Below, piece by piece: positions 14,557-50,290 of a stretch of DNA of 64,000 nucleotides. Position numbers and translations under genes: made by a program. This DNA is from Peptococcia bacterium (GTDB lineage Bacteria > Bacillota > Peptococcia > DRI-13 > DTU073): contig JBMNJJ010000009.1 in NCBI GenBank assembly GCA_050951605.1, positions 36 through 64,035 on the forward strand, in the 5' to 3' direction. Positions within the stretch are counted from its first letter, which is position 1. Each line of letters starts with the position of its first letter. The notes under the pieces are model-generated. The model saw nothing but the letters and a program-made list of their open reading frames with translations, was not told the origin of the DNA and searched no databases.

Positions 14557-15317
14557 ATTCAGGGGCGGCGATTAGTATATCTTCTCTTTTTATGGCGTCT
14601 TCACTGGTGGTAGTTTCTCTTTTGTTTTCTTATTTTCAAAAATTAGGGTTGGAAAAAGAAACGTTAATCAGTGTGGGGAGAGCTATTATTCAGCTCATTA
14701 TTGTAGGTTATATTCTTGAATATGTTTTCGGACAGCATAGTCCTGTGTTCACAACTTTACTACTTGTTTTTATGACCTTTAATGCTGCCTATAATGCGGC
14801 TAAAAGAGGGAAGAGGATTAGGAATGGTTTATTGATTTCTTTTGTTTCTATAGCCCTAGGAGCAATTATTACTTTATCTGTGCTTTTGTTATCCGGAGCG
14901 ATACAATATGAGCCGTTTCAAATCATTCCCATTGGGGGCATGATTATCAGTAATGCCATGATAGCCTTAGGACTTTGTTACCGGCGCTTGACTTCTGATT
15001 TTAAAGATAAAAGAGAAGAAGTAGAAGCAAAATTAGCTTTAGGAGCAGATATTTTACCAGCATCTTTGGAGATAATTAGGGATGCTATTCGTACGGGAAT
15101 GTTACCTATGATTGATTCGGCTAAGACTTTGGGAATTGTTGCTTTGCCCGGTATGATGACCGGGCTTATTTTAGCGGGAGTGTCCCCCGTAATGGCTATT
15201 CGTTATCAGATTATGGTTACTTTTATGATGCTATCGACCACGGCGATTGCTTCTTTTATGGCTTGCTATTTAGCTTATCGAACTTTCTTTAACCAGAGGA
15301 AACAGCTGATTAATTGA
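14553..15317 (+). CDS. fetB: Iron export ABC permease FetB/YbbM
   Basis: RAIIQL..VGYIL, IIPIGGMIISNAM, KTLGIVALPGMMTGLILAG. Confidence 0.9.
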   Translation: MNSGAAISISSLFMASSLVVVSLLFSYFQKLGLEKETLISVGRAIIQLIIVGYILEYVFGQHSPVFTTLLLVFMTFNAAYNAAKRGKRIRNGLLISFVSIALGAIITLSVLLLSGAIQYEPFQIIPIGGMIISNAMIALGLCYRRLTSDFKDKREEVEAKLALGADILPASLEIIRDAIRTGMLPMIDSAKTLGIVALPGMMTGLILAGVSPVMAIRYQIMVTFMMLSTTAIASFMACYLAYRTFFNQRKQLIN

Positions 15318-15406
15318 CAAGAAAAAGAAATCTGTTAAAATATAGCATATATGGAAGAGCAGTGTTAGAAAAAGGCTATGGGAATTTTATTTCAATAGCC
15401 TTTTTC
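15314..15406 (+). promoter_or_regulatory. Promoter-leader-hairpin element, copy A
   Basis: TTGACA-N16-TAAAAT (extended -10 TG), leader atagcatatatggaagag, hairpin aaaaggctat..atagcctttt upstream of RBS. Confidence 0.75.
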
Positions 15407-15427
15407 TTTGTTGAGGAGGAAGAAATA

Positions 15428-16318
15428 ATGAAGAAAAAGAGAGTCATGATTTTGCTTTTGGGAGTAATGTTGGGGTTAGCTCTACCTGTTTGGGCTACTA
15501 CACCTGATGTACGTGTTTATGTGGATGAGGTAGAAGTAGTTTTTCCTGACCAAAAACCATTGATCAATGCCGATAATCGTACTTTAGTACCACTTAGATT
15601 TGTTTCTCAGGCTTTAGGTGGTAAGGTAGAGTGGTTTAAAGAGACGAAAACAGTAGAGATGAAGCATGCAGGAGAAACAATCTTGCTGACAGTCGGCGAG
15701 AGGTTTGCCCGCAAAGGCCAGGAAAAAATCACTCTCGATACAACAGCAACAATTATGGGGGATCGCACCATGGTACCTTTGCGTTATGTGAGTGAATGCT
15801 TGGGTGCTCATGTTTACTGGAATGGAACTAAACGAAAAGTATTTATTACGACCCAATTGCCTTCCGTTAATGAGTTTGTGGGGCTTCCTTTTAAACCCAG
15901 TGATTTGCCTTTTAAAGGGGGAAGCAGGCCTTTAGAACGTTCAGACCTACCTTCAGCAAGGATTCAATATGTAAAAGTTTCAGAGTTGCCAGTAAAATTA
16001 AGTAAAAATTATACGATATATGACGTTAATGTTGATACTAAATATATATACATAAAACAGTTTTGTGATGTTAAAATTCCGGCTCCTTTATATATGGTAG
16101 AAAATGGGCAATTAAACAGGAATAGATGTTATACAAGTGATTTTCAAGAAAGTGTTGTTTTTACTTATAAATATCCTGTGCAGTCGAGATTAGAACAAGC
16201 GACGGGAGATAAGCCTGTAGATCTAAGTAAAATTGAAGGTTTTACTTTACACACGCTTAGTGATGGTAATTTTAGAATGCTAGTCATTGAGAATCCTCTT
16301 TACCAAGGAGGAGAATAG
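15428..16318 (+). CDS. Secreted copper-amine-oxidase N-terminal (stalk) domain protein, copy 1
   Basis: Signal peptide; FPDQKP..NRTLVPLRFVSQALG, RTMVPLRYVSECLGA.V.W; unknown C-terminal domain. Confidence 0.88.
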   Translation: MKKKRVMILLLGVMLGLALPVWATTPDVRVYVDEVEVVFPDQKPLINADNRTLVPLRFVSQALGGKVEWFKETKTVEMKHAGETILLTVGERFARKGQEKITLDTTATIMGDRTMVPLRYVSECLGAHVYWNGTKRKVFITTQLPSVNEFVGLPFKPSDLPFKGGSRPLERSDLPSARIQYVKVSELPVKLSKNYTIYDVNVDTKYIYIKQFCDVKIPAPLYMVENGQLNRNRCYTSDFQESVVFTYKYPVQSRLEQATGDKPVDLSKIEGFTLHTLSDGNFRMLVIENPLYQGGE

Positions 16319-18003
16319 TGGTGAAACGGGTTTTCTGGTTGGGGGTATTAACCTTTTTATTTTTTTCTTTACCTGTCTGGGCGCAAGAGGTGCCGGAAGA
16401 AGTGTTTTTAGGTGAAAGAATTGATGTGGGTTGTTTTAATATTTGGTTACATGCCGATGGCCGGACGTGGCAGAATACAGATGGCCAGCCGGGTCCGGAA
16501 GAGCCTTATGCCGGGACGGATTTAGATAATGATCCGCAAAAAGAAAAGTATTTACGCTATGTTACTTTTCAAGCTGAGCCTAATCAAGAATGGGAAAAGA
16601 GTTACGAGAATATTCGGGCGGAAGCAAGTGTTGATTGGTTTAAGACATTTACCAAAGAAGATTATGAGGTGGCCGGTGGTGCCGGGAAAGCAAGTAAAGA
16701 TGGACAAGAGTACGTTTCCCTAGAGTATGACCTTTTTTTTCCGCAAGTATGGGAACGTAGACCACATAGTTATCAATTAGCTCCTGAAATTTCGCCCTTA
16801 ACTGTTAAATTTTATTTACATGATAAAAGGCAAGCTGAAGATGTCAAACAAGAGGACCAGCTAGAGTTGGTAGAAGGTTGGCGGTGGTATTTGCCGGTCC
16901 ATCTCAAATTTTATGGTGTGCCTAAGCCTTTAGTTATAGATTTAGAAGCGGTAGAGATAAGACAAACTAGCCCTGTGCAGACGAATACCGAGCAGATAGC
17001 TACGGCTGTCTTGCGCAATAATGGTGATTGTTCAGAACAATTTACAGCTCAATATTTTGCCGATGGTAAAAAAATAGGTAGTGAAGTCTTAACTTTAGAA
17101 GCGGGAGAAAGTTGTACACGAAACTTTAATTGGCAAGCTCCGGCACAGGCGGGAAAATGCACCTTAAAGATAGAGGTGGTGCCGGTAGAGGGAGAAGTTA
17201 ATATAAGCAATAATATTAAAACGGCTTCGATTATGGTGGAGGAGCCTAATTTCATTGCTCCGCAATGTGACTTTATGAATATTGATGAAAATGAATGGTC
17301 GGAAACATATCATTGGCAAGAGAAACGTAACTGTAGCTATACTGATGATAATGGAGTGTATCATCCTGCAACTTGTACTAGCTCCAAAGAAAAAACAGTC
17401 ACTTATCAAGAAAAGCTCACGGTAGATTTTAGTATTAATACGAAACAGGGGGACCCTAATGGAGGTAGGGAAAGTCGCGGTTATTGGGAAATCTATCCTG
17501 ATACGCAAAACCGAGAACCGAAATATAATTCACAGCGTAAAATTAGCATCCATAGGCAGGACCCCAATAAAGTAACGCGGTCGGGTTATGGTTATGACTT
17601 AACAGTCAAGACAACATATTGGACTGATTGGGAAACGAAGGTACCTAGTAAAGCTAAGGCTAAAGGAGGGAGGTTTTCCGGACCACAACTCGTTGTGGTG
17701 CAATTTCAGGATCGTAATGAGATTGAAAAATTGGTTCCTGTAAAAACAGAAACCAAAGGAAAGAGTGTGCTTACTACTTGGAAATTGCCGAAAACAAGTC
17801 ATACTTTTCCCGATGGGGAAACAATTTGGGAGACTAAACATTATACTGATGTTAGCCTCCCTGATGGAGAATATTTAGTAAGGGCTATTGTTTCGCCGTG
17901 TGGGCAAGGAATAGGGGAAATTTGTCAGGATGATTATGTGTTCATTTACGGTAGTGTGTATGATGATATTTATACTCGCCCGGCGAAAGAAAGTGAGTGG
18001 TGA
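16318..18003 (+). CDS. Secreted CARDB-domain protein with C-terminal SGYG...HYT...PDG.Y...GS.YDD domain, copy 1
   Basis: Signal peptide; DL...V.N.G...L..GES....W...G...E....NN CARDB pattern at aa ~208-308. Confidence 0.75.
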   Translation: MVKRVFWLGVLTFLFFSLPVWAQEVPEEVFLGERIDVGCFNIWLHADGRTWQNTDGQPGPEEPYAGTDLDNDPQKEKYLRYVTFQAEPNQEWEKSYENIRAEASVDWFKTFTKEDYEVAGGAGKASKDGQEYVSLEYDLFFPQVWERRPHSYQLAPEISPLTVKFYLHDKRQAEDVKQEDQLELVEGWRWYLPVHLKFYGVPKPLVIDLEAVEIRQTSPVQTNTEQIATAVLRNNGDCSEQFTAQYFADGKKIGSEVLTLEAGESCTRNFNWQAPAQAGKCTLKIEVVPVEGEVNISNNIKTASIMVEEPNFIAPQCDFMNIDENEWSETYHWQEKRNCSYTDDNGVYHPATCTSSKEKTVTYQEKLTVDFSINTKQGDPNGGRESRGYWEIYPDTQNREPKYNSQRKISIHRQDPNKVTRSGYGYDLTVKTTYWTDWETKVPSKAKAKGGRFSGPQLVVVQFQDRNEIEKLVPVKTETKGKSVLTTWKLPKTSHTFPDGETIWETKHYTDVSLPDGEYLVRAIVSPCGQGIGEICQDDYVFIYGSVYDDIYTRPAKESEW

Positions 18004-18017
18004 ATTTTTACTGCTTA

Positions 18018-18515: not shown

Positions 18516-18911
18516 ATGGATAGAGAAGTTTTGATTAATTATTGGGTTGAAACTGCCAATAGGGATTATAAAACTATGTTGAATTTATACAAAAGTAATG
18601 ATTATCACTGGAGTCTTTTTATAGGACATTTGGTTATCGAAAAGTTGCTTAAAGCTATATATGTTAAGAATATTGATGATAATCCACCTAGAATACATAA
18701 TTTACTAAGGTTAGCAGAGAAGGCACAAATTGATACAACTGAAGAGCAAAAAGATATATTGGATCTTATTACAACTTTTAATATAAATATAAGATATCCA
18801 GATTATAAACAAATGTTTTATAAGAAATGCGATTACGAATTTACAGCAGCTAATTTGCAAAAGATAAAGGAGTTGAGAATATGGCTTCTCACAATGATAG
18901 AAATAGAGTAG
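18516..18911 (+). CDS. HEPN domain protein
   Basis: W.LFIGHLVIEKLLKA, PPRIHNLLRLA, RYPD. Confidence 0.88.
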   Translation: MDREVLINYWVETANRDYKTMLNLYKSNDYHWSLFIGHLVIEKLLKAIYVKNIDDNPPRIHNLLRLAEKAQIDTTEEQKDILDLITTFNINIRYPDYKQMFYKKCDYEFTAANLQKIKELRIWLLTMIEIE

Positions 18912-19201
18912 AAGAAATTGTAAAAGAATATGGAAAATTAGTACAGGAAAAGGTAGATATAAAATATATATATTTATATGGTTCATATGCAAAAGGTACT
19001 CATTCACTAGATAGTGATATTGACATAGCTGTAATTGGAGATGATTTTATTGGAGATCCTATAGAAGATACCTTAATGTTAATGAGAATAAGAAGAAAAG
19101 TAGATAATAGAATTGAGCCTCGTTCATTTAAAACCAGTGAATTTAATTTATCTAATCCACTTGCAAGAGAAATAATAAGCACAGGAATAAAAATAATTTA
19201 G
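18881..19201 (+). CDS. Minimal nucleotidyltransferase (MNT), HEPN-MNT pair
   Basis: LYGSYAKG...DSDIDIAV; overlaps HEPN gene. Confidence 0.88.
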   Translation: MASHNDRNRVEEIVKEYGKLVQEKVDIKYIYLYGSYAKGTHSLDSDIDIAVIGDDFIGDPIEDTLMLMRIRRKVDNRIEPRSFKTSEFNLSNPLAREIISTGIKII

Positions 19202-19233
19202 GGTTTTTAAAACATTGATAAAAATGGAGATAT

Positions 19234-19421
19234 AAGTAGAAGCAAAATTAGCTTTAGGAGCAGATATTTTACCGGCATCTTTGGAGATAATTAGGGTTGC
19301 TATTTGTTATCGGATTATGGTTACTTTTATGATGCTCTCGACCACGGCAATTGCTTCTTTTATGGCTTGCTATTTCGCTTATCGAACTTTCTTTAATCAG
19401 AGGAAACAACTGATGAATTGA
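19234..19421 (+). pseudogene. fetB: Duplicated 3' fragment of fetB with 111-bp internal deletion
   Basis: Matches 15019-15317; the segment between the two gctattcgt microhomologies (15084 and 15195) is missing. Confidence 0.9.
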
Positions 19422-19511
19422 CAAGAAAAAGGAATCTGTTAAAATATAGCATATATGGAAGAGAAATATAAGAAAAAGGCTATGGGAATAAAATTCCCAT
19501 AGCCTTTTTCT
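19418..19511 (+). promoter_or_regulatory. Promoter-leader-hairpin element, copy B
   Basis: TTGACA-N16-TAAAAT; perfect 19-bp stem agaaaaaggctatgggaat-aaa-attcccatagcctttttct. Confidence 0.75.
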
Positions 19512-19531: not shown

Positions 19532-20422
19532 ATGAAGAAAAAGAGAGTCATGATTTTGCTTTTAGGAGTAATGTTGGGGTTAGCTCTACCTGTTTTGGCT
19601 ACTACACCTGATGTACGTGTTTATGTGGATGAAGTAGAAGTGGCTTTTCCTGACCAACAGCCTTTGATTAATGCCGATAATCGTACTTTAGTACCACTTA
19701 GATTTGTTTCTCAGGCTTTAGGTGGTAAGGTAGAGTGGTTTAAAGAGACGAAAACAGTAGAGATAAAGCATGCAGGGGAAACAATCTTGCTAACAGTCGG
19801 CGAGAGGTTTGCCCGCAAAGGTCAGGAAAAAATCACTCTCGACACAACAGCAACAATTATGGGGGATCGCACCATGGTACCTTTGCGTTATGTGAGTGAA
19901 TGCTTGGGTGCTCATGTTTACTGGAATGGAACTAAACGAAAAGTTTTTATCACGACCAAATTGCCTCCTGTTAATGAGTTTGTGGGGATTCCTTTTAAAC
20001 CCAGTGATTTGCCTTTTAAAGGGGGAAGCAGACCTTTAGAACGTTCAGACCTACCTTCAGCGAGGATTCAATATGTAAAGCCATCCGAGCTACCAGTAAA
20101 ACTTAAGGATAGTAGAATTATTTACAATTTAACTGTTGATGAAAAATATATCTACATAAAGCAGTATTCTAAATTAAGATTACCGTTGCCTTTGTATATG
20201 GTAGAAGATGGGCAGTTAAATAGAGGAAGGCGTTATACAAGTGATTTACAGGAAAGTGTGGTTTTTACTTTTAAATATCCTGTACAATCCAGATTGGAAC
20301 AAGCCACTGGTGAGAAACCGGTTAATTTAAGTGAAATCAGTGGGTTTACTTTACATACAATTACTGACGAAGGATTCAGAATGTTGGTTATTGAGAATCC
20401 TCTTTACCTGGGAGGAGAATAG
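19532..20422 (+). CDS. Secreted stalk-domain protein, copy 2
   Basis: Paralog of 15428-16318; near-identical first ~183 aa, divergent C-terminal domain. Confidence 0.88.
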   Translation: MKKKRVMILLLGVMLGLALPVLATTPDVRVYVDEVEVAFPDQQPLINADNRTLVPLRFVSQALGGKVEWFKETKTVEIKHAGETILLTVGERFARKGQEKITLDTTATIMGDRTMVPLRYVSECLGAHVYWNGTKRKVFITTKLPPVNEFVGIPFKPSDLPFKGGSRPLERSDLPSARIQYVKPSELPVKLKDSRIIYNLTVDEKYIYIKQYSKLRLPLPLYMVEDGQLNRGRRYTSDLQESVVFTFKYPVQSRLEQATGEKPVNLSEISGFTLHTITDEGFRMLVIENPLYLGGE

Positions 20423-22110
20423 TGGTGAAACGGGTTTTCTGGTTGGGAGTATTATTCTTTTTATTTTTTCCTTTATCTGTCTGGGCGCAAGAGGTGCCCG
20501 AAGAAGTTTTTTTAGGTGAAAGAATTGATGTGGGCTGTTTTAATATTTGGTTACATGCTGATGGTCGGACGTGGCAGAACACAGATGGTCAGCCGGGTCC
20601 GGAAGAACCTTATGTCGGGACAGATTTAGATAATGACCCGCAAAAAGAAAAGTATTTACGCTATGTTACTTTTCGAGCTGAGCCTAATCAAGAATGGGAA
20701 AAGAGTTATGAGAATATTCGGGTGGAAGTAAGTGTCGATTGGTTTAAGACATTTAAGAAAGAAGATTATGAGGCTATTGGTGGTGCCGGGAAAGCGAGTA
20801 AAGATGGAGCGGGGTATATATATCTTGAAGAATATCAAGAGTTTGTATCTTTAGTTTGGGAAAGTAGACCACATAGTTATCAATTAGCTCCTGAAATTTC
20901 GCCCTTAACTGTTAAATTTTATTTACATGATAAAAGGCAAGCTGAAGATGTCAAACAGGAGGACCAGCTAGAGTTGGTGGAAGGTTGGCGGTGGTATTTG
21001 CCGGTCCATCTCAAATTTTATGGTGTGCCTAAGCCTTTAGTTATAGATTTAGAAGCGGTAGAGATAAGACAAACTAGCCCTGTGCAGACGAACACCGAGC
21101 AGATAGCTACGGCTGTCTTGCGCAATAATGGTGATTGTTCAGAACAATTTACAGCTCAATATTTTGCCGATCGTAAAAAAATAGGTAGTGAAGTCTTAAC
21201 TTTAGAAGCGGGAGAAAGTTGTACACGAAACTTTAATTGGCAAGCTCCGGCACAGGCGGGAAAATGCACCTTAAAGATAGAGGTGGTGCCGGTAGAGGGA
21301 GAAGTTAATATAAGCAATAATGTTAAAACGGTTTCGATTATGGTGGAGGAGCCTAATTTCATTGCTCCGCAATGTGACTTTATGAATATTGATGAAAATG
21401 AATGGTCGGAAACATATCATTGGCAAGAGAAACGTAACTGTAGCTATACTGATGATAATGGAGTGTATCATCCTGCAACTTGTACTAGCTCCAAAGAAAA
21501 AACAGTCACTTATCAAGAAAAGCTCACGGTAGATTTTAGTATTAATACGAAACAGGGGGACCCTAATGGAGGTAGGGAAAGTCGCGGTTATTGGGAAATC
21601 TATCCTGATACGCAAAACCGAGAACCGAAATATAATGCACAGCGGGGCATTAATATTTATGGGCAGGACCCCAATAAAGTAACGCGGTCGGGTTATGGTT
21701 ATGACTTAACAGTCAAGACAACATATTGGACTGATTGGGAAACGAAGGTACCTAGTAAAGCTAAGGCTAAAGGAGGGGGGTTTTCCGGACCACAACTCGT
21801 TGTGGTGCAATTTCAGGATCGTAATGAGATTGAAAAATTGGTTCCTGTAAAAACAGAAACCAAAGGAAAGAGTGTGCTTACTACTTGGAAATTGCCGAAA
21901 ACAAGTCATACTTTTCCTGATGGGGAAACAATTTGGGAGACTAAACATTATACTGATGTTAGTCTCCCTGATGGAAGATATTTAGTAAGGGCTATTGTTT
22001 CGCCGTGTGGGCAAGGAATAGGGGAAATTTGTCAAGATGAGCATGTGTTTATTTACGGTAGTGTGTATGATGATATTTATACCCGCCCGGCGAAAGAAAG
22101 TGAGTGGTGA
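20422..22110 (+). CDS. Secreted CARDB-domain protein, copy 2
   Basis: Paralog of 16318-18003. Confidence 0.75.
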   Translation: MVKRVFWLGVLFFLFFPLSVWAQEVPEEVFLGERIDVGCFNIWLHADGRTWQNTDGQPGPEEPYVGTDLDNDPQKEKYLRYVTFRAEPNQEWEKSYENIRVEVSVDWFKTFKKEDYEAIGGAGKASKDGAGYIYLEEYQEFVSLVWESRPHSYQLAPEISPLTVKFYLHDKRQAEDVKQEDQLELVEGWRWYLPVHLKFYGVPKPLVIDLEAVEIRQTSPVQTNTEQIATAVLRNNGDCSEQFTAQYFADRKKIGSEVLTLEAGESCTRNFNWQAPAQAGKCTLKIEVVPVEGEVNISNNVKTVSIMVEEPNFIAPQCDFMNIDENEWSETYHWQEKRNCSYTDDNGVYHPATCTSSKEKTVTYQEKLTVDFSINTKQGDPNGGRESRGYWEIYPDTQNREPKYNAQRGINIYGQDPNKVTRSGYGYDLTVKTTYWTDWETKVPSKAKAKGGGFSGPQLVVVQFQDRNEIEKLVPVKTETKGKSVLTTWKLPKTSHTFPDGETIWETKHYTDVSLPDGRYLVRAIVSPCGQGIGEICQDEHVFIYGSVYDDIYTRPAKESEW

Positions 22111-22124
22111 ACTTTTACTGCTTA

Positions 22125-22754
22125 GTGAACCTCTCCCACTTATAGAAGATGGGGGCTTCAAAGATATCACCATCCTAAATCCGAACGGTCTTCCGGTTAG
22201 GAAATCCTTGTCTACTAAGGACATCGATTTTTCTTTCGTCAAAATATTCTTGGCACCATGTATATCCCGATGTTCACTATAGCCACAGTAACACCTATAG
22301 ACTCTGCCGGATACTTTCTTTTTCCGGCCGCAAACAGGGCATGTTTGCGATGTATAGGCTTCATTTACTTTTCTAATGGTAATATTTTCGGCACCAAGTT
22401 TGTATTTCAAGATATTTGTACAGTGTTTTAACTTTTACAATCAAAGGCTTTTGACGTTTGCCTTGCCAGATACCCATACTTAGTTCTATTCTGCCATGAG
22501 GATAGATTTTAAAACCATTCTTTTTCCATCTGGTGTTAAAATTCTTTTTTTGCCGCCTGGGGTAACGTATAGCGGTATATCCATTTACCATGTTCTTTGC
22601 GGTAGTTTTTAGCTAAAGCCAATGTATCATTCCATATTTGTCCGGAGAGACGGTTACACACGAAAAGAAGTTCTCTTGTTTCCTTTACCACCTACCTCTT
22701 GCTAAAGCAAGCAAGGAAGGAAGGGTTGAGGTGGTGGTCTTCTACTGAGCATTG
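22125..22754 (-). mobile_element. tnpB: Internally deleted IS200/IS605 element with tnpB fragments
   Basis: VNEAYTSQTCPVCG..CYCG..HRDIHGAKNI (RuvC-III/zinc finger) plus an upstream YPRRQK..TRW fragment; both ends intact. Confidence 0.88.
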
Positions 22755-42152: not shown

Positions 42153-43580
42153 ATGACCAATAAGTTAATTAAAAAAAGGGCATTCTGGCTTGTATTTATT
42201 TTGATTTTGCTTATTCTGGGAACAATGCTATATTTCAAAAAACAATCTCCTCCTAGCGAAAACGGTTTGCCTGCTCAAAAGAGTGTTGTAGATGGACAAG
42301 TTAAGCAAAATAAAAATGAGAGCAATCTGGGAGAGACGGAAGAAAATAATTCTGAGCAAGGAATAGTCCGCAAAAATCCATTTGATGCTTCCGAAATTAA
42401 TATTATGGATAAGGTTTGTGGTTTAACTTTAATTGATAAGAAAATAAGTAAGAGAAACGAAGTATATCAACTTGATTTCACTGGTGAAGTAAAAGTTAGC
42501 GGAACTTATGAACATTGGGGAGAAGCAGGACTTATGACGCCATGTATTTCCTTTTATCCCGATAATGATTCCGTAAACTTACTGCCTAAGGTTAATGATG
42601 ATGATAGAATAGTTTGGTTTAATCTAAATGATTATAATAAGATTAAAGGGGGTTTTAGTGAAGCAAAAAGTTCCGGTAAGGCAACAATCGTTATTGATAA
42701 CTATATTATTAATTTGAGAGAAGGGGCAACTAGTAATACTGCTGATTTAATTAAAATATTAGGGATCGAAGCTAATTCTGTTGAAGCTACTATAGCGGAA
42801 AGGTTAAAAAAACATGCTAAGGAAAATGTGGTAAAGGTATTTTACGATGACTTTGATGGTGATGGTGTTAAAGAGGCTTTTGTTTTAACCGGAGAATTGA
42901 CAAACAAGCAAGATGAGTGTAGCTGGAGTGAGGGTAAAGTATGGTTTGTCGGTCAATTTTATGAAATGGTACAAGATGGATTATTCACGCATTTTTCTTT
43001 TGAACCAAGTATAATAACGCTTGACGATATAAAATTACTACATGTGCCTAAAGAATATGCTACAGGTTGTCATTCATTTTTGTTTGGTGTTGTAAAAGAA
43101 GAGCCCTATACATATTTTGATTATGAAAAGGGTTATATATACGAGGAAAATGGCAGCTTGTTATTAAATAATGATGCTTATGATGCTTATTATGAAGCTG
43201 ATACGGGAATGTTTGTGGGACACACATATAAAGACTATTATTTGTATTGCGAAAAAGATGATGATAATTTTAAGGGATTTCGTGAATACGGAGCTGTGGA
43301 AATTTCGCTGGAACAGTTTCTCAAATTTAAAGGGGCTCAAGATATGCTTGAGCAAATAAAGGCTATTAATAACAATGCGGAAATTACTAATATTTTATAT
43401 CGTGAAAACGAGGTAATTAATCTAAATTACATTATCCGGGATGATTTAGGGTATGCACAAAAAAACGCAACTGTAAATTATAATGATAAAGAAGTTTATA
43501 ATTTTATAGCCGGTGATGGGAAATATGAAAAGGCAATTATTCCCGAGATTGCATCATATCCTATTTTTAAGGAGCCATGA
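42153..43580 (+). CDS. Membrane-anchored hypothetical extracellular protein
   Basis: N-terminal TM helix; DFDGDG Ca-binding-like motif. Confidence 0.65.
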   Translation: MTNKLIKKRAFWLVFILILLILGTMLYFKKQSPPSENGLPAQKSVVDGQVKQNKNESNLGETEENNSEQGIVRKNPFDASEINIMDKVCGLTLIDKKISKRNEVYQLDFTGEVKVSGTYEHWGEAGLMTPCISFYPDNDSVNLLPKVNDDDRIVWFNLNDYNKIKGGFSEAKSSGKATIVIDNYIINLREGATSNTADLIKILGIEANSVEATIAERLKKHAKENVVKVFYDDFDGDGVKEAFVLTGELTNKQDECSWSEGKVWFVGQFYEMVQDGLFTHFSFEPSIITLDDIKLLHVPKEYATGCHSFLFGVVKEEPYTYFDYEKGYIYEENGSLLLNNDAYDAYYEADTGMFVGHTYKDYYLYCEKDDDNFKGFREYGAVEISLEQFLKFKGAQDMLEQIKAINNNAEITNILYRENEVINLNYIIRDDLGYAQKNATVNYNDKEVYNFIAGDGKYEKAIIPEIASYPIFKEP

Positions 43581-43678
43581 CAAAGATGGTTGAATTTGAT
43601 AATGACTGGGATGAACTGTTGCCAGATGAATTCAAGAAAGAATATTATTTGAAATTAAGGTAGTTTTTGATTAAAGAA
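43577..43678 (+). repeat. Degenerate copy of the first ~100 bp of ung
   Basis: Matches 44856-44957, with a CAG->TAG stop. Confidence 0.9.
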
Positions 43679-43704
43679 AATACTAAAGTTGGAGGTAGCA
43701 GTAT

Positions 43705-44060
43705 ATGCGGCTTTTATTTTCAAGGGGAGCCGTTACCACAGCTAGAAGCGGCTCATCAGTTTAATAGGTACCTGTGAGGCGAACTGCAAGTTTTTTAGCA
43801 CCTATGGGGACACCTTTTAGGCAAGAGGTTTGGAAGACATTGCGTAAAATTCCTTATAGTAAAACGGCTACATATAAGCAGATCGCTGAAAAAATAGGGC
43901 GACCGAAGGCAGCGCGTGTAGTCGGTCTAGCCTGTAGGCAGAATCCCAATCCGTTTTTTATTCCTTGTCATCGTGTGGTGGGCCGTAATGGTGATCCTAC
44001 CGGGTATCGGGGAGGCTAGAGCTTAAAAAACACTTATTATTGTTGGAAGAGAGGCAAGGA
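43705..44060 (+). pseudogene. ogt: O6-methylguanine-DNA methyltransferase remnant
   Basis: GTPF...VW..L..IPY, AAR.VG, PCHRV, GYRGG then premature stop; N-terminus eroded. Confidence 0.8.
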
Positions 44061-44303
44061 ATTTGTTGATTCAATGCACGAAAGCCTTGCTGGATAAAAG
44101 AAATGAAAATTGAGTCCGGAAAAGATAAACAATCGACTTAGGCATTCTTTAAGTTGGTATAGTTATAATATATAATCAAATGGTAAAGATGGTTATAGTA
44201 CGGTTTATTGCCGAAAGGGTAATGGAATCACATAAAGAAATCCTACGTCTTTTGCAGATACTGTTTCCTGGCTAGAAAATGAAGAAAGGGGCAATTTACG
44301 TAA

Positions 44304-44849
44304 ATGAAATTTCTTTTTGTTTCAGATATACATGGTTCACTTTATTATACAAAGAAAGTCTTAGAAGTTTATCAAAAGGAGCAAGCTGATTATCTTGTAC
44401 TGTTAGGGGATGAATTATATCATGGTGCCAGAAATCCTTTGCCTCGAGAATATAACCCTCAAGAAGTGGCCCGGTTGCTTAATAAATATGCTGATAGAAT
44501 TATTGCCGTAAGGGGAAATTGTGATAGTGAAGTTGATCAAATGGTACTTACTTTTCCCATCATGGCTTCTTACTCTAATGTTTTGCATGAAAGGAAACGT
44601 TTGTTTTTAACACATGGTCATCATTATAATGATGATAATTTACCCCCATTGAGTAAGGGGGATGTTTTCATTTTCGGACATACCCATTTACCTAAAGCAG
44701 AGAAAAAAGAAGGCTTATTTATGATTAATCCAGGTTCAATTGCTTTACCTAAGGAAAACAATCCTAATACATATGGTATTTTAGAGAAAGGTGTTTTCAG
44801 AATTAAGGATTTAGCGGGGAATATCTGTAATGAGCTTAATTTGTCTTAA
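44304..44849 (+). CDS. yfcE: YfcE-type phosphodiesterase
   Basis: SDIHGS, LGD.LYHG.RN, RGNCDSEVD, THGH, GHTH, NPGS. Confidence 0.92.
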   Translation: MKFLFVSDIHGSLYYTKKVLEVYQKEQADYLVLLGDELYHGARNPLPREYNPQEVARLLNKYADRIIAVRGNCDSEVDQMVLTFPIMASYSNVLHERKRLFLTHGHHYNDDNLPPLSKGDVFIFGHTHLPKAEKKEGLFMINPGSIALPKENNPNTYGILEKGVFRIKDLAGNICNELNLS

Positions 44850-44855
44850 GGGAAG

Positions 44856-45539
44856 GTGACAGATATGGTTAAATTTGACAATGACTGGGATGAATTATTG
44901 CCAGATGAATTCAAGAAAGAATATTATTTAAAATTAAGGCAGTTTTTGATTAAAGAATACCAAACTAAAATTATTTATCCTGATATGTACAGTATTTTTG
45001 CAGCGTTAAAATTAACGGCATATCAAGATGTTAAAGTAGTACTTTTAGGGCAGGACCCTTATCACGGAAAAAACCAAGCACATGGCTTGGCTTTTTCTGT
45101 ACAAAAGGGAGTAGTGATTCCTCCTTCTTTGCTTAATATTTACAAGGAGTTGGCTACTGACTTAAATTGCTACATACCTAATAATGGTTATTTAGTTCCT
45201 TGGGCTAAACAAGGTGTGTTACTTTTAAACACTAGTTTAACTGTTAGGGCTAATTCAGCTAATTCACATCGCAATAAAGGATGGGAAATATTTACTGATG
45301 CTGTAATCAAATTATTAAATAAAAAAGATACTCCCATTGTTTTTTTCTTATGGGGGAATAATGCTAAATCTAAAATAAAATATATCACTAATCGGAGGCA
45401 CTTGGTTTTGACAGCAACACATCCGAGCCCCTTTTCGGCAGATAAAGGTTTTTTCGGTTGTCGTCATTTTTCTAAAGCCAATCAATTTTTAAAAGAAAAT
45501 GGACAGAAGGAAATTGATTGGCAAATTCCCAATATCTGA
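44856..45539 (+). CDS. ung: Uracil-DNA glycosylase family 1
   Basis: GQDPYH, PPSL.NI, GVLLLN, HPSP. Confidence 0.96.
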   Translation: MTDMVKFDNDWDELLPDEFKKEYYLKLRQFLIKEYQTKIIYPDMYSIFAALKLTAYQDVKVVLLGQDPYHGKNQAHGLAFSVQKGVVIPPSLLNIYKELATDLNCYIPNNGYLVPWAKQGVLLLNTSLTVRANSANSHRNKGWEIFTDAVIKLLNKKDTPIVFFLWGNNAKSKIKYITNRRHLVLTATHPSPFSADKGFFGCRHFSKANQFLKENGQKEIDWQIPNI

Positions 45540-45548
45540 TAAGGATTT

Positions 45549-45947
45549 TTAATATTTGTGAAAAGAGAAGATGGTAATATATTTAGAAAGTGTAAAAAGG
45601 TTTAATGTGTGATATATACCAATAACAAAAAGAATAGCCACAACAACCTGTGTGCTACGATAGGCAAAGTAAAAGTTTTTCTTGGCTACCCAATGTACAA
45701 TTATAATAAACAGAGCTAAAGTTCCTAACTTATAACTAATCACAGCGGTGGGGCTAATTAGAAATAACCGCTGTAGGAAAGGATTTAATTCTATTTCATA
45801 ACCAAAATATTGGGTTAACCATAATGTTACCCCAAGGTCCCAGATATTTAAAAAACATAAAGTAAAAAGCAAGCAATAGAGGCTTTTTTGTTTTTTTAAG
45901 GGTATTTCCGATTTTGTTTTGATAAAAAATAATAATCTAAGTAACAT
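45549..45947 (-). CDS. DUF5658-like membrane protein
   Basis: LN..D...T, E.NP, K motif within hydrophobic helices. Confidence 0.6.
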   Translation of the reverse strand: MLLRLLFFIKTKSEIPLKKQKSLYCLLFTLCFLNIWDLGVTLWLTQYFGYEIELNPFLQRLFLISPTAVISYKLGTLALFIIIVHWVAKKNFYFAYRSTQVVVAILFVIGIYHTLNLFTLSKYITIFSFHKY

Positions 45948-46007
45948 ATAGTAGTAGTATATGTTACTTAGCGTTCTGTTATTCTACGCAAAAGAAAGGT
46001 TGATTAG

Positions 46008-46544
46008 ATGCGTTTATTTATTGCCATTAATTTTAATAAGGAGATTAAAAATAGTCTTTATGAGAACATCAAAAGACTTAAATCATATGCGAATCAAGGC
46101 AATTTTACTCCTCCGGAGAATTTACACTTAACCTTGGTTTTCTTGGGTGAAGTTGTTCCGGATAAAGTGAGCAGAATAAAGCAGGTCATGGATAAAGTTA
46201 TTGCGGAGCCTTTTGCATTAACTATTAGTAACCTGGGGCGTTTCGAACGTCGTGAAGGGGATATCTACTGGTTGGGAATAGAGAAAAGTACAACACTGCT
46301 TAGTATCTATAATCAGCTGAGTAAGAACCTTATCCAAGCAGGGTTTCCTCTAGAGAAACGAGAATATAAGCCACATTTAACTCTTGGTAGAAGGGTTATC
46401 CTTAAGCAACAGTTTAATAAAGCAGAGTTTGACCAAAATATGCAATCTATGAATATAAAAGTAGATAAAATCAGCTTAATGAAGTCTGAACGGATTAAGG
46501 GGAAACTAACCTATACGGAAATTTATGCCAAAAAACTTGAATGA
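46008..46544 (+). CDS. thpR: RNA 2',3'-cyclic phosphodiesterase (2H family)
   Basis: MRLFIA, two HLTL motifs. Confidence 0.92.
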   Translation: MRLFIAINFNKEIKNSLYENIKRLKSYANQGNFTPPENLHLTLVFLGEVVPDKVSRIKQVMDKVIAEPFALTISNLGRFERREGDIYWLGIEKSTTLLSIYNQLSKNLIQAGFPLEKREYKPHLTLGRRVILKQQFNKAEFDQNMQSMNIKVDKISLMKSERIKGKLTYTEIYAKKLE

Positions 46545-46580
46545 TAATTTGTGGTCATTGTTGGAGAGCGGGGGAAAAAG

Positions 46581-47216
46581 ATGGAAGGTTTAATGAAAAT
46601 ATATAATTTGCTTTTTGCAGCTTATGGTCCGAGAAAGTGGTGGCCTGCGGAGACTGCTTTTGAAATGATGGTAGGAGCTATTCTTACTCAAAACACAACA
46701 TGGACTAATGTAGAGAAGGCCATAGCTAATTTTGGTGATAAGTTATCACCAAAATTTATAGAAACGGTATCTCTTACAGAACTTGCCCAAATTATTCACT
46801 CCAGTGGGTTTTATAATCAAAAGGCAAACAGCTTAAAAGCTCTTACTAAATGGTTTAAAAAGTATGCGTATAATTTGCAAGAAGCGAAAAAAGTAGATGG
46901 GGAAATTTTGCGAGAGGAGCTATTGGCTGTTAAAGGTGTGGGCCGGGAAACGGCTGATTCAATTTTAACGTATGCTTTAGAGAAATCGTTTTTTATTGTC
47001 GATGCTTATACTAGGCGGATTTTATCTCGTGTTGGTTATAAACTTCCTAAAACTTATGACCAAGTAAGATTAAAAATTGAGGCGAGCATCCCCCAGGACT
47101 TATATATGTATAACGAGTTTCATGCTTTACTTGTCGAACATGCCAAGCGTCATTGTCAAAAGAACCCTCGTTGTGAAGGTTGTCCACTTGGTTGTTTTTG
47201 CGTTGGATATGATTAA
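46581..47216 (+). CDS. HhH-GPD endonuclease III-related protein
   Basis: WWPAE, GAILTQNT.W.NV, GVG.ETAD, VDAY, C..NP.C..CPL...C. Confidence 0.9.
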   Translation: MEGLMKIYNLLFAAYGPRKWWPAETAFEMMVGAILTQNTTWTNVEKAIANFGDKLSPKFIETVSLTELAQIIHSSGFYNQKANSLKALTKWFKKYAYNLQEAKKVDGEILREELLAVKGVGRETADSILTYALEKSFFIVDAYTRRILSRVGYKLPKTYDQVRLKIEASIPQDLYMYNEFHALLVEHAKRHCQKNPRCEGCPLGCFCVGYD

Positions 47217-47376
47217 ATAGGAAAAGTGCTTTGCGATTTTTAGCAATTTACGGTAAACTTATAAGAAATAAGTGATATGGCCTATTAAATAATGAATTAG
47301 ATGACTTCGTTGAGTATATGCATCATATCCATAGATGGTTAAATAATAATTACAAATAAGTAAGGATGAGTTGTGT

Positions 47377-47805
47377 ATGCAAAAAAATATTACTGAGGTA
47401 GAAAAAGTGTTAAATAAATATATAGACAAGTTGGTTAATGATTATGGTATAAAACTTATCTATGTTTTTGGTTCTTATGCTAAAGGAGAAAACAGGGGAA
47501 ATAGTGATTTAGATATAGCTATGTATCTTAAGGGTGAAGTAGATGGACTTATTAAATTAGCTATTTTGGATGAGTTAGTGGGCATCTTTAATAGAGTAGA
47601 TATAGATTTGGTTATTTTAAATAATGTAGATGAAGTATTAAAATTTCAAGTTATAAAGTATGGAAAAGTTATATATATGGAAAATTTGTTAACAAAGGTC
47701 ATGTTTGAATCTAGAGTTATGAGTGAATATATGGATATGGAGCATTTTAGAAAAGTTAGAAATAAGTATACTCATAAGAGATTTTTAGAAGTTATGAAAA
47801 ATTGA
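47377..47805 (+). CDS. MntA-type nucleotidyltransferase antitoxin, no intact cognate HEPN toxin
   Basis: FGSYAKG....SDLDIA, IDLV.LN, YMD. Confidence 0.85.
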   Translation: MQKNITEVEKVLNKYIDKLVNDYGIKLIYVFGSYAKGENRGNSDLDIAMYLKGEVDGLIKLAILDELVGIFNRVDIDLVILNNVDEVLKFQVIKYGKVIYMENLLTKVMFESRVMSEYMDMEHFRKVRNKYTHKRFLEVMKN

Positions 47806-47884
47806 CAAGGAGAAGAAATATGTTAAAATATAGAATATATGGAAGAGTAATGTTAAAGGTTATTGATTTCAATAGCCTTTTTTC
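47802..47884 (+). promoter_or_regulatory. Promoter-leader-hairpin element, copy C (upstream of radC)
   Basis: TTGACA-N16-TAAAAT, atagaatatatggaagag, aaaggttattga-tt-tcaatagcctttttt. Confidence 0.75.
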
Positions 47885-47919
47885 AGTTTTAAACTGAAAA
47901 GGAGCGGGTAGGGAGTAAT

Positions 47920-48603
47920 ATGGGGAAAAATCTACATAAAGGGCATCGCCAAAGAATGCGGACAAGATATATAAAAGAAGGTTTAGATGCGTTTGATGAC
48001 CATCAGGTTTTGGAAATGCTTTTGTTTTACTGTATACCACGTAGGGATACAAATGAGCTTGCTCATAAAATGATTCGTGAATTTGGCTCTTTAGCCAACT
48101 TATTTGAAGCAGTCCCCAAGGATATTGCCAAACGTTGTGGAGTTAGTGAAAATACAGCTGTTTTAGTTTCGTTAATACCTTCTTTATCGCGCAGGTATAA
48201 TCAAAGAAAATGGGGGGATAAGCCTTTTTTGGGCAATTCCACAAATGCAGGTGAATATGCGGTGTCTCTTTTTACCGGTAGAACTTATGAGAATTTTTTT
48301 ATACTTTGTTTAGATGGGCAAAATAAGTTAAATCATGCTGCTTTAGTTAATGAAGGTACAATTAATGAAGCCGCTGTTTATCCGAGAAATATTGTGGAAA
48401 TAGCTTTAAGGCATCAAGCAGCTAAAGTTATACTTGCCCATAATCATCCGGGGGGAAGTTTAAAACCTTCACATGCGGATATAAGAATTACTCAAATAAT
48501 CAAGGATGCCCTCGGTGCTATTTCTATTGATGTAGTGGACCATATTATTGTGGCGGGCGATGAATATTTCAGTTTAGCCGAAAAAGGTTTGTTAGGAAGA
48601 TAG
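47920..48603 (+). CDS. radC: RadC/JAB domain protein
   Basis: GHR.R, LE.LL.Y..PR.DTN, V.PR, AHNHPGG...PS..D, DHIIV. Confidence 0.93.
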   Translation: MGKNLHKGHRQRMRTRYIKEGLDAFDDHQVLEMLLFYCIPRRDTNELAHKMIREFGSLANLFEAVPKDIAKRCGVSENTAVLVSLIPSLSRRYNQRKWGDKPFLGNSTNAGEYAVSLFTGRTYENFFILCLDGQNKLNHAALVNEGTINEAAVYPRNIVEIALRHQAAKVILAHNHPGGSLKPSHADIRITQIIKDALGAISIDVVDHIIVAGDEYFSLAEKGLLGR

Positions 48604-48654
48604 GGGTATGATTAAATCTGGTGTAGTATTTTACGAACAATAACGTTATAATGA

Positions 48655-48964
48655 ATAGCAAAGGAAGTAGAAGCAGAATTGGGAATTAAGAATGTATGAG
48701 TTAAAAATTTCGCCTGAAGCAAAAGATGATTTGGCGGCATTTCTCAGGAACTTTATAATTCGCAGGCAGCTGTGAAATTATGTTCTAAAATTATGAAAAA
48801 AATACGTAGGCTATCAGAGTATCCCGAAATTGGAACGCCATTATCTTCGATAATTGACATTCAAACAGATTATCGTTTTCTTGTCTGTGGAAATTTTTAT
48901 ATCAAGAATTTTATAGGGTAGGCAAGATTATATGCGCATTTTGTTTGGTTATTTATCGGAGTAA
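48655..48964 (+). pseudogene. RelE/ParE toxin remnant preceded by an antitoxin 3' stub
   Basis: MYELKISPEAKDDL, L.EYPEIG, DYRFLVCG across broken frames. Confidence 0.65.
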
Positions 48965-49040
48965 CCACTAAATTTGGTCAATTTTTATCTTAATATTATA
49001 AATATGTATGACTAATTATCAGGATTAGGGGAGAAAAAGT

Positions 49041-50211
49041 ATGCAATTTTCAAAAAGAATGGAACAGTTTGGGGAAAGTATTTTTTCTAATTTATTGGCC
49101 ATAAAAAGGGAGAGATTGAAAAAGGGAGCGCCGGTTATTGACTTAAGTATAGGTGCTCCCAATATTCCACCGGCAAAGCATATTTTAGAAGCTTTATGTA
49201 CAGCTGCTGCCGATGCCCGGAACTATGTTTATGCGGTTAATGACCAAGCTGCTTTATTAGAGGCAGTGTCTTTTTGGTACAAAAAAAGATATGGGGTGGA
49301 TTTAAACCCACAAACAGAGATTTGTTCTTTATTAGGCTCCCAGGAGGGCTTTTACCATATTTCTATGACTATTCTTGATGAGGGTGATTTGGCACTTGTA
49401 CCGGACCCTTGTTATCCTATCTTTGCCGATGGCCCGCGTTTAGCAGGTGCCCAGCTTTATTATCTGCCCCAAAAAAAAGAAAACGACTATGTGCTTCAAT
49501 TACAAGATATTCCGGAAGATATAGCTAGAAAGGCAAAGCTTATGGTTGTATCTTATCCTAATAATCCAACTACAGCTATGGCACCACCTAGTTTTTACAA
49601 AGACTTAATTGCTTTTGCTAAAAAATATGAAATTATCGTTTTACATGATAATGCCTATAGTGATTTAGTGTTTGATGGTCAAAAATGTGGTAGTTTTCTC
49701 TCTTTTCCCGGAGCAAAGGATGTTGGTGTTGAGTTTAATTCTTTGTCTAAAACTTATGGTTTAGCGGGTGCCAGAATTGGTTTCTGTGTTGGCAATGCAG
49801 AGGTGGTCTCTCACCTCAAGATATTAAAATCAAATATTGATTATGGCATGTTTTTACCTTTTCAAAGAGCTGCTATTGCCGCGATTACCGGTAAGCAAAA
49901 TTGTGTGGAGGAAACCAAAAAGGATTATGAAAGGCGAAGAAACGTTCTTTGCGATGGTTTTAATCAGTATTGGCTGGCCGATAGAAAAGCCGCAAGCCAC
50001 CATGTTTGTGTGGGCCATGATTCCGTCTCCTTATCAGAAATCAATGGATTTTGCTTTGGATCTGGTAGAAAAAGCCGGCGTTATAGTAACACCGGGGAGT
50101 GCCTTTGGCCCGTCCGGTGAAGGCCATGTACGTATGGCCTTAGTTCAGGATGAAGAAGTGCTACAAAGGGCGGTTCAAGCAGTTGACGAAAGCGGGATTT
50201 TGCAAGCATAA
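49041..50211 (+). CDS. Class I/II PLP aminotransferase (DapL-like); frameshift ~49965
   Basis: GSQEG, PDP.YP, SYPNNPT, HDNAY, SLSK.YG..G.RIG, TPG.AFG..GEG.VR. Confidence 0.9.
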
Positions 50212-50220
50212 TTTCCCGAA

Positions 50221-50290
50221 TATTGATAAGAGAAAAGCAATACTATAGCAAAAGGCTATTGAAATGTTAAAGATTTCAATAGCCTTTTGC
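50221..50290. terminator. Hairpin repeat family, copy E, in a bidirectional terminator position
   Basis: Perfect 18-bp stem gcaaaaggctattgaaat-gttaaag-atttcaatagccttttgc between convergent genes. Confidence 0.8.

Follow-up and report, generated by a model that had tools for sequence, protein, structure and literature searches.

A promoter-leader-hairpin module reused in front of unrelated genes within one bacterial genus

Introduction

Attenuation in the leaders of Firmicutes genes is known from RAT/LicT-type systems, ANTAR, PyrR, the reiterative transcription of pyrG and processive antitermination by the NusG paralogue LoaP. Promoters can also recur as units, and putative mobile promoters have been described as highly similar non-coding upstream sequences placed before non-paralogous genes of one genome (PMC3575422). 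Miniature repeats that bear promoters form a further group comprising the Correia elements, ERIC and REPIN (PMC3575422). The module described here, found in a contig of a Peptococcia bacterium, is approximately 95 nt long and composed of three parts, a near-consensus sigma-A promoter with an extended -10, the leader ATATGGAAGAG and an A-tract followed by a hairpin and a T-run. The window refers to the whole 64,000-nt stretch of DNA analysed.

Results

The promoter TTGACA-N16-TAAAAT with an upstream TG is present at 15314-15341, 19418-19445 and 47802-47829, each scoring 11/12 and ranking top among the promoter-like sites in both scanned regions. On the 3' side of all three lie ATATATGGAAGAG, the hairpin and the T run, in that order. 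Full-length copies are those at 15314 (A), 19418 (B) and 47802 (C) together with copy F on contig C3. Two short forms, D and E, begin at TTGATAAGA (39782 and 50223) and have GTTAAAG in the loop; judged by alignment to the long copies they are deletion derivatives of the module without the -10 box.

15314-15406, plus strand: copy A; -35 at 15314-15319, TG at 15333-15334, -10 at 15336-15341, leader ATATATGGAAGAG at 15347-15359
15368-15406, plus strand: A-tract, hairpin and T-run of copy A; arms 15374-15385 and 15389-15400, one G.A mismatch, -19.1 kcal/mol
19418-19510, plus strand: copy B; -35 at 19418-19423, -10 at 19440-19445
19478-19489 and 19493-19504, plus strand: hairpin arms of copy B, perfect pairing; T-run 19505-19509; -28.8 kcal/mol
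39782-39845, plus strand: decayed copy D; -35 changed to TTGATA, -10 box and most of the leader deleted, hairpin 39806-39845 kept
47802-47883, plus strand: copy C, 5' of radC; -35 at 47802-47807, -10 at 47824-47829, leader at 47835-47847
47855-47883, plus strand: hairpin and T-run of copy C; 11 nt (distal arm and loop) lost
50223-50289, plus strand: decayed copy E; TTGATA in place of the -35, -10 box and leader deleted, perfect hairpin 50249-50289
56394-56291 of contig C3, minus strand: copy F, the sixth copy, preceding a third stalk operon

The copy A hairpin contains one G.U pair besides its single G.A mismatch. The 11 nt missing from copy C are still present in the strain of run X2 (an insertion after 47864), and an 11-bp hairpin remains in copy C after the deletion. 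The copy E hairpin is located 38 nt 3' of an aminotransferase stop codon with convergent genes on either side. A palindrome, ATATA-N3-TATAT, is seen 3' of the -10 box and takes the form ATATG-N3-CATAT at radC of genome G002; it is given no weight because it is AT-rich and broken in copy F.

The genes adjoining copies A, B and C in the window are arranged as follows.

14538-15317, plus strand: fetB-like gene (UPF0014), its TGA stop inside the -35 hexamer of copy A
15428-18003, plus strand: stalk operon 1, with a Cu_amine_oxidN1 gene (15428-16318) and a CARDB gene (16318-18003)
19217-19417, plus strand: duplicate fragment of the fetB 3' end that came along with copy B
19532-22110, plus strand: stalk operon 2, a paralogue of operon 1 with 92.7% DNA identity
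47371-47805, plus strand: nucleotidyltransferase (MNT/Polbeta) gene that ends with a TGA within the copy C -35
47920-48603, plus strand: radC (RadC-like JAB domain), its start codon 37 nt past the T-run of copy C

With the fetB-like gene stopping inside the -35 of copy A, the module hairpin is the first terminator past that gene. The ribosome-binding site of stalk operon 1 begins 8 nt past the module's T-run, and because the hairpin abuts the ribosome-binding site a second promoter would not fit ahead of the start codons of the stalk genes or radC. The gene families served are the Cu_amine_oxidN1/CARDB "stalk" operons, radC and a gene termed X, the proteins downstream of the module being Cu_amine_oxidN1 (PF07833), RadC (PF04002) and X, which has 458 amino acids and belongs to no known family (no Pfam match). 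Homologues of the CARDB protein outside the genus are proteins of approximately 1000 amino acids sharing only the C-terminal part, with no comparable operon. Two copies have relics of insertion sequences next to them, one a piece of TnpB (21982-22410) and the other, 5' of copy F, a piece of a UPF0236 transposase. Carriage of the module by the MNT genes 5' of B and C was also considered and rejected, the regions at 18.5-19.2 kb and 47.0-47.8 kb showing no DNA similarity.

The hairpin folds in 11 of 11 copies, with energies between -11.6 and -28.8 kcal/mol and at least four T following each stem. Pair states were read from the individual copies, excluding the model-fitted alignment on account of reverse-strand matches of the palindromic hairpins, and three stem positions show double compensatory changes with the intermediate states also present. 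The covariation of the stems noticed in a sequence-only reading of the window is therefore upheld, pairing being kept through compensatory change, and on this pattern the hairpin is under selection as a structure. A stable stem-loop with a G+C-rich base and an immediate U-run, the features of an intrinsic terminator, is found in the copies; a simple terminator scanner picks out B and C as terminator-like and, on the plus strand, passes over A, D and E. Relative to the predicted promoter the hairpin is placed between the predicted start site and the downstream start codon, ahead of the ribosome-binding site as that reading had it. The Rfam search of the whole window gave no match at the gathering score, and at E <= 1 the hairpins drew only miRNA/snoRNA-type families and ylbH (22.5 bits, where the gathering score is 50), sub-threshold matches that are at chance level.

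The leader ATATGGAAGAG is invariant in seven of the eight full copies with the spacer and hairpin region having diverged, an invariance beyond plain promoter reuse that may mark a binding site. An open reading frame from the ATG of the leader runs for 3, 5 or 15 codons depending on the copy, and a conserved leader peptide is ruled out because these mini-ORFs end at different places.

A 44-position pattern of the module has three matches in the window and none in 100 shuffles, and the four long copies are recovered by nhmmer with E = 7e-26 to 5e-17. Copy D is weak by nhmmer (E = 1.3) and clear by a covariance model (1.9e-7) that has D among its building sequences. The promoter pattern TTGACA-N13-15-TGnTAnAAT occurs at only 14 sites in the 1.9-Mb genome, four of these being the module and the other 10 having neither its spacer nor its leader. 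Copies A and B lie inside a 2,933-bp duplication of 92.7% identity, including 118 bp of the fetB 3' end, and are not independent since both belong to this one segmental duplication, of which the fetB fragment beside copy B is the mark. The radC region is homologous to copy A at 47800-47882 only, and copy C is 79.8% identical to A over 94 nt, 88.5% to B over 52 nt and 82.9% to F over 70 nt. The limits of homology are sharp, with the match of F to A starting exactly at the -35 and DNA homology ending at the T-run. These relationships show a spread that, as far as alignments record it, took two routes: whole operons were copied in segmental duplications (A, B and F), and at radC and X the promoter was captured or duplicated. 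All five sites of the sequence-only reading are real and read as it described, including the B, E and D stem types and the hybrid copy A, and nhmmer, the covariance model and the alignments agree with it that one homologous promoter-leader-hairpin unit is common to unrelated genes. Its count of five needs amending, with copy F making a sixth on contig C3, A and B arising from one duplication and the independent events being fewer because A, B and F precede paralogous operons.

Among 41 genomes searched, matches below E = 1e-5 occur only in three genomes of genus g1. Copies with the promoter pattern number four in G000, four in G001 and two in G002, with none in the reversed control, and copies per genome come to six in total, as in G000, two to four of them having an intact promoter. 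The module is absent from the radC upstream regions of five other genera, and scans with the promoter-leader pattern gave three loci in 185,579 species genomes, each of them from a single MAG record. Two further module loci came from the scan of metagenomes and none from that of viral contigs. Across these searches the module is confined to one genus; scanning the genome and its relatives, as had been suggested, brought more copies and a single genus, and the Rfam search of the window no family.

All 12 promoter-intact copies (four in G000, four in G001, two in G002, and loci L062 and L063) stand directly 5' of a same-strand ORF. On the upstream side a same-strand gene ends at or within approximately 100 nt of the -35 in seven of the eight full copies, with its stop inside the -35 twice, and radC in G001 has a divergent Glu_synthase-domain gene as its upstream neighbour. 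The G001 site orthologous to copy E (the 50221 region) holds a full-length module driving the unrelated gene X. In G002, the most distant congener, the homologous promoter and leader precede radC and a stalk gene without the hairpin, and upstream terminators take the usual position 5' of the promoter; the hairpin is dispensable, since it is missing at both loci.

The stretch is present in 20 of 24 listed sequencing runs, all of them DNA-type metagenome contigs with no RNA run among those listed. The region 39500-50500 compared in four DNA runs shows strain variants only, and no full-length variant of copy E is among the rows listed for these runs. In run X5 one contig connects 47852 with 50292 of the opposite strand, which may be a misassembly across the look-alike hairpins of C and E and is not counted as evidence.

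Discussion

The module is best described, with somewhat better than even confidence, as a lineage-specific promoter-leader cassette with a terminator inside the leader that has been reused before at least three unrelated gene families in one genus. The sigma-A promoter with its extended -10 would start transcription approximately 7 nt past the -10 box, leaving the first ~20 nt of the RNA (AUAUGGAAGAG...) unpaired. An intrinsic-terminator hairpin, with its A-tract, 11-19-bp stem and U-run, is then predicted to form between approximately +25 and +65, just 5' of the ribosome-binding site. A terminator inside the leader would make the downstream genes dependent on read-through, and their expression would equal promoter strength multiplied by read-through, with a terminated leader RNA of ~60 nt as the likely by-product. 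The same hairpin would end the transcript of the upstream gene where there is one. No built-in switch is seen and attenuation is accordingly taken as constitutive or set by general factors, barring a trans-acting factor. The efficient-looking terminators, with 19-20 pairs in copy B, weigh against genes without another promoter being fed by read-through. Loss of the driven gene is expected to let the promoter decay by deletion and to leave the hairpin behind as no more than a terminator, as at copy E and probably at D; E lies between convergent genes without a -10 box or leader, and the same site in G001 carries the full module and X.

The sequence-only reading had proposed a shared attenuation or antitermination regulon. 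In such a regulon a trans-acting factor acting on the invariant leader would decide terminator formation and co-regulate the stalk operons, radC and X. Candidates for the factor would be RNA-binding proteins, CsrA for one, and other antiterminators. Constancy of the leader ATATGGAAGAG in all but one full copy beside a variable spacer and hairpin is consistent with such control, as are the lack of any other promoter for the served genes and the hairpin form itself, which is found at all G000 and G001 loci and at neither G002 locus and looks concerted. CsrA binds GGA motifs, the genome encodes CsrA, and GGA is present in the leader and in the ribosome-binding sites, although it carries little weight because almost any ribosome-binding site has it. 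An antiterminator fold is rejected, the pairing of the leader with the right terminator arm giving only -2.7 to -5.5 kcal/mol and being equalled or bettered by 34%-96% of shuffled leaders across the eight copies. The NusG paralogue suggested earlier is also lost as a candidate, the genome holding a single NusG, which excludes LoaP-type antitermination. BglG/LicT-type antitermination is excluded in the same way, since no CAT_RBD protein is found in the genome with a search that matched in control genomes; the ANTAR search gave none in the genome and likewise none in the control. With no Rfam family at the gathering score, a functional link among the downstream genes not demonstrated and G002 managing without the hairpin, the regulon is unlikely. 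It is equally doubtful that the module is a new cis-regulatory RNA whose leader AUAUGGAAGAG docks a candidate trans-acting factor (e.g. CsrA) controlling read-through of the terminator. Were this so, copying of the whole cassette would have brought surface-protein operons, radC and X, a gene of a pilus-type locus, under a single new regulon in the G000/G001 lineage within a genus's lifetime, and the terminated ~60-nt leader could also be a decoy RNA.

An alternative with a similarly low probability has the hairpin terminate or insulate the upstream gene, or serve to stabilise or process mRNA, leaving transcripts from the module's own promoter without appreciable termination. Terminating the upstream same-strand gene could be the hairpin's main role given how such genes end against the -35 in all full copies except one, and the promoter-dead copy E is positioned as a terminator between convergent genes. 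The claim that the hairpin only terminates the upstream gene, named in the sequence-only reading as one that would tell against it, is partly borne out by these positions and does not hold at radC of G001, where a divergent gene is all that lies upstream, and on that basis the hairpin appears to belong to the leader and not solely to the upstream gene. To our knowledge no mechanism would spare transcripts begun 25 nt upstream and stop those from further upstream. The stem-loops known to stabilise Firmicutes mRNAs are 5'-terminal, whereas the module hairpin begins ~20-25 nt from the predicted 5' end, farther than is usual for them.

The strong promoter, unpaired conserved 5' segment and intrinsic terminator also have the anatomy of a small RNA gene, and a multicopy family of trans-acting RNAs of ~60 nt (promoter, seed and terminator) with incidental downstream genes is a distinctly less probable explanation. 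Against it, every one of the 12 copies with an intact promoter abuts a same-strand gene that lacks another promoter, the promoter has decayed at E where the downstream gene was lost, and the terminator part is absent in G002. A miniature mobile element with an outward promoter (MITE/REP/PATE-like, autonomous or non-autonomous) is very improbable even with a ~95-nt unit before unrelated genes, IS relics adjoining two copies and sharp homology limits at the -35 and T-run, there being just six copies per genome (two to four promoter-intact), no match in viral contigs or outside the one genus, and neither terminal inverted repeats nor target-site duplications seen on reading the boundaries of C, F and the G001 copies. 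Of the mobile promoter-terminator cassette offered earlier as an alternative, the reused cassette fits the comparative data, with duplication and capture in place of a high-copy mobile element.

Read as a reused promoter-leader cassette, the module illustrates promoter reuse clearly, though in a rather ordinary form and with modest interest, the finding being descriptive with transcription start, termination and read-through all predicted. Its value is as a clean, datable example from an uncultured anaerobic-digester lineage in which one unit can be traced via the orthologous sites of congeners through duplication, capture, compensatory stem evolution and decay to a bare terminator. It cautions annotators that an A-tract, hairpin and T-run need not mark the end of a gene, and as a small part taken from nature it combines a strong promoter with a would-be attenuator. 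Were the invariant leader to be a binding site, the module would mark out a regulon of recent origin.

Comparison with known systems

The order of promoter, short leader, intrinsic terminator and ribosome-binding site, together with the need for read-through, is shared with the leader attenuators of the Firmicutes. The module differs from them in having no detected competing antiterminator, NusG paralogue, CAT_RBD protein or riboswitch-sized aptamer and in a leader of only ~20 nt before the terminator, and placing it in any of them finds no support. With the Correia, ERIC and REPIN repeats it has in common a short repeated hairpin unit able to give neighbouring genes promoter or terminator activity. 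Those repeats, partnered by a transposase or RAYT, carry terminal inverted repeats and number tens to hundreds of copies, whereas the module has at most six copies per genome and no terminal repeats.

The putative mobile promoters are comparable in that the module corresponds to no known IS and to no Rfam family (PMC3575422). Copy C qualifies as one under the operational definition used there, being 88.5% identical to B over 52 nt in front of a non-homologous gene (PMC3575422). The rule of non-paralogous coding sequences holds for radC, the stalk genes and X; A, B and F are mutually paralogous and under this rule would be excluded. Unlike those promoters, the module has a full consensus promoter with a terminator hairpin downstream of it, and it is a tiny family of one genus in which the orthologous sites of congeners show both the gain and the decay of the unit (PMC3575422).

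Anatomy and Recurrence of the Module

The module is a unit of approximately 95 nt composed of a sigma-A promoter with an extended -10, a 5' leader and an A-tract, hairpin and T-run. The sequence-only reading described five sites in the window, which is borne out on reading each of them, and a fourth long copy, F, is present on another contig of the source assembly (G000).

15314, copy A (full), ahead of a stalk operon (Cu_amine_oxidN1 gene and CARDB gene)
19418, copy B (full), ahead of the second stalk operon
39782, copy D (short)
47802, copy C (full), ahead of radC
50223, copy E (short), between an aminotransferase gene and a convergent nitroreductase gene
Contig C3, 56394-56291, minus strand, copy F (full), ahead of the third stalk operon

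In copies A, B and C, TTGACA and TAAAAT are separated by a 16-nt spacer that includes a TG; these sites score 11/12 with an extended -10 and are the top promoter-like sites of both scanned regions. Downstream of each full promoter is ATAG(C/A)ATATATGGAAGAG followed by a variable 8-10 nt, the A-tract, the hairpin and the T-run. The T-run lies 8 nt from the start of the ribosome-binding site in the stalk copies and 37 nt from the start codon in the radC copy, spaces too small for a second promoter. The short copies start with TTGATAAGA and contain GTTAAAG in their hairpin loops. A 44-position pattern has three matches in the window against none in 100 shuffles, nhmmer gives the long copies E-values of 7e-26 to 5e-17, and the consensus extended promoter fits 14 sites in the 1.9-Mb genome, four being the module and the other 10 having no further likeness to it. 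The recurrence is not due to chance.

The five sites are real, but A and B are not independent, as both lie inside a 2,933-bp duplication (92.7% identity) that also includes a 118-bp piece from the 3' end of fetB. Between F and A, identity is 83.6% over 2.7 kb, with homology beginning exactly at the -35. A, B and F therefore represent one gene family in which the promoter was duplicated along with the genes. The informative copy is C, a stalk-like module with RadC encoded downstream, where homology to the stalk copies is limited to 47800-47882.

A truncated UPF0236 transposase is located upstream of F (G000:C3 ~56620-57288, L024:4620-5288, minus strand). The CARDB gene behind F (G000:C3:53673-55374, minus strand) has two in-frame stops, one TGA and one TAG, and is therefore probably a pseudogene. 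Between the duplicated operons a HEPN gene (18516-18911) overlaps an MNT nucleotidyltransferase gene (18881-19201), which at 106 aa is below the usual length, and a second MNT gene (47371-47805, 144 aa) immediately precedes the radC module. Other strains lack part of this second MNT region, since 47261-47607 is skipped by contigs of metagenome runs X1 and X2. A TnpB-type fragment (Cas12f1-like TNB domain; 21982-22410, minus strand) follows the second stalk operon. Directly after this operon there may also be a Wadjet-type defence cluster, with a JetD_C (Wadjet) domain protein as the first ORF and the one scanned (22908-24011) and large ORFs (519, 250 and 1469 aa) continuing to 30742.

Structure and Role of the Hairpin

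The hairpin folds in all 11 copies examined (-11.6 to -28.8 kcal/mol), and the stem covariation noticed in the sequence-only reading holds, with pairing kept by double compensatory changes at three positions where intermediates are also present.

Compensatory changes in the hairpin stem
Position 3: usual C-G; compensated U-A in D; intermediate U-G in the radC copies
Position 7: usual U-A; compensated G-C in B and the G001 copy ahead of gene X; intermediate G.A in A and the G001 stalk copy
Position 9: usual A-U; compensated G-C in B; intermediate G.U in A

These changes, few events among related sequences, show selection for stem pairing as for any terminator and nothing beyond that. The radC hairpin in G000 still forms an 11-bp stem after an 11-nt deletion, and in a strain of run X2 it has 11 extra nt, giving back the long arms and the GTTAA loop. 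In run X5 a contig links the radC hairpin (47852) with the E hairpin (50292) on opposite strands, either through an inversion in some strain between these similar palindromes or as an artefact of assembly.

That the hairpin only terminates the upstream gene agrees with seven of the eight full copies, where a same-strand gene ends just upstream (its TGA stop inside the -35 in two), but not with radC of the congener G001, where the upstream gene is divergent and has a Glu_synthase domain. Dual use of the hairpin is therefore likely.

Absence of a Recognizable Switch

The proposal of an attenuation or antitermination regulon gained no support, as no switch was found: the leader pairs weakly with the terminator 3' arm (-2.7 to -5.5 kcal/mol) and in 8/8 copies does not outperform shuffled leaders, the module matches no Rfam family, and the genome encodes a single NusG with no paralogue and no CAT_RBD protein. 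An ANTAR search gave no match, its control being likewise empty. A regulated regulon sharing the module, for which no positive evidence emerged, is the less likely reading. The genome encodes CsrA and the leader contains GGA, which gives no more than a lead towards a candidate regulatory link. In alignment A1, copies A and C differ at 1/27 positions between the -10 box and the end of GGAAGAG, the conserved block of the leader (about +15), and their hairpin halves have diverged with indels; leader conservation beside a diverged hairpin half is not explained by simple promoter reuse. A conserved leader peptide was rejected since the ORF from the leader ATG stops after 3, 5 or 15 codons depending on the copy.

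Short Copies and Gene X

Both ends of D and E align with the long copies in alignment A1, with TTGATA as the -35 and approximately 30 nt spanning the -10 box and leader missing. The G001 site orthologous to E, directly after the same aminotransferase gene, has a full module and then X on the same strand, a 458-aa gene with no Pfam or NCBIfam match, and on metagenome contig L062 a full module follows a DegV gene and precedes an X orthologue. X is missing at the E site in G000. D and E are decayed copies, with the G001 site as the proof, the promoter at E being lost and the hairpin retained. A stand-alone small RNA gene fits poorly with this pattern, as 12/12 promoter-intact copies adjoin a gene and the promoter decays once the downstream gene is lost.

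Three X homologues elsewhere in G000 (C1:6157-7530, C7:6006-7373 and window ~58274-59657) are 77-86% identical to the G001 protein, and their nearly identical upstream regions each have an ordinary terminator-then-promoter arrangement. The window copy is frameshifted and followed by ORFs without assigned function and a T2SSE-type secretion ATPase fragment (61368-61940), so X may be the first gene of a pilus- or secretion-type locus. Upstream are large genes for RCC1/Cadherin-like surface proteins (52603-58138). The aminotransferase gene upstream of E (49041-50211) is split into two frames that overlap (49041-50120 and 49837-50211). One base at 49966 is missing from contigs in three of the four runs compared, pointing to a frameshift or an assembly error in the source genome.

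The 760 nt around D (39333-40092) are conserved in G001 and contain no ORF of at least 80 aa, and no Rfam family matches them at E <= 1. The D-type element and both flanks are doubled in G001 as direct repeats (C191:27-101, L034, and 1991-2065, L037), and the ~1.96-kb segment between them, which may be an insertion bracketed by duplicated target sequence, contains a 141-aa ORF together with two small ORFs of 84 and 106 aa, which overlap and resemble a toxin-antitoxin pair.

Distribution and a Hairpin-free Version

Of 41 genomes searched at the DNA level, only those of the genus's three species (G000-G002) match at E < 1e-5, all remaining matches being 15-27 nt and at chance level. Covariance model R1, made from nine copies that match by construction, further detects two D-type copies in G001, a degenerate copy at a stalk paralogue there, and both promoters in G002. 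The promoter pattern with <=2 mismatches gives 4, 5 and 3 matches in G000, G001 and G002 (reversed control 0), and the exact matches (4, 4 and 2) are all family members. Five other genera of the family have radC upstream regions with no relation to the module. Exact-pattern scans find three loci in 185,579 species genomes, all in one 'Clostridia bacterium' MAG record, two loci in metagenomes and no match in viral contigs. This DNA occurs in runs from metagenomes labelled as bioreactor, digester, biogas and landfill.

In G002, where RadC is 72% identical to that of G000, a homologous promoter and leader precede radC (78% over 55 nt) and also a stalk gene. The hairpin is missing from both copies and the terminator of the upstream gene is in its usual place 5' of the promoter; at every locus in G000 and G001 the hairpin is present. 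The hairpin is therefore unnecessary for a promoter serving these genes, and the hairpin version either spread from locus to locus within the G000/G001 lineage or disappeared from both G002 loci. In G003, a genome from a related genus, a ~977-aa protein matching the C-terminal part of the CARDB gene product (C12:78685-81283) is encoded ~800 nt upstream of radC, and this adjacency could be the origin of the shared promoter.

Proposed Mechanism and Relation to Mobile Promoters

The anatomy and evolutionary history of the module are shown, and we infer initiation, termination and read-through. The best-supported mechanism would be a strong promoter with its output limited by the leader terminator, which would also close the upstream transcription unit and yield a ~60-nt terminated leader RNA as a by-product.

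The suggested mobile promoter-terminator cassette stands in part. A miniature transposable element is unsupported given the low copy number and lack of terminal repeats, but the module is a putative mobile promoter as operationally defined (PMC3575422). Compared with the putative mobile promoters of that study, the reused unit additionally has an intrinsic terminator downstream of the promoter.
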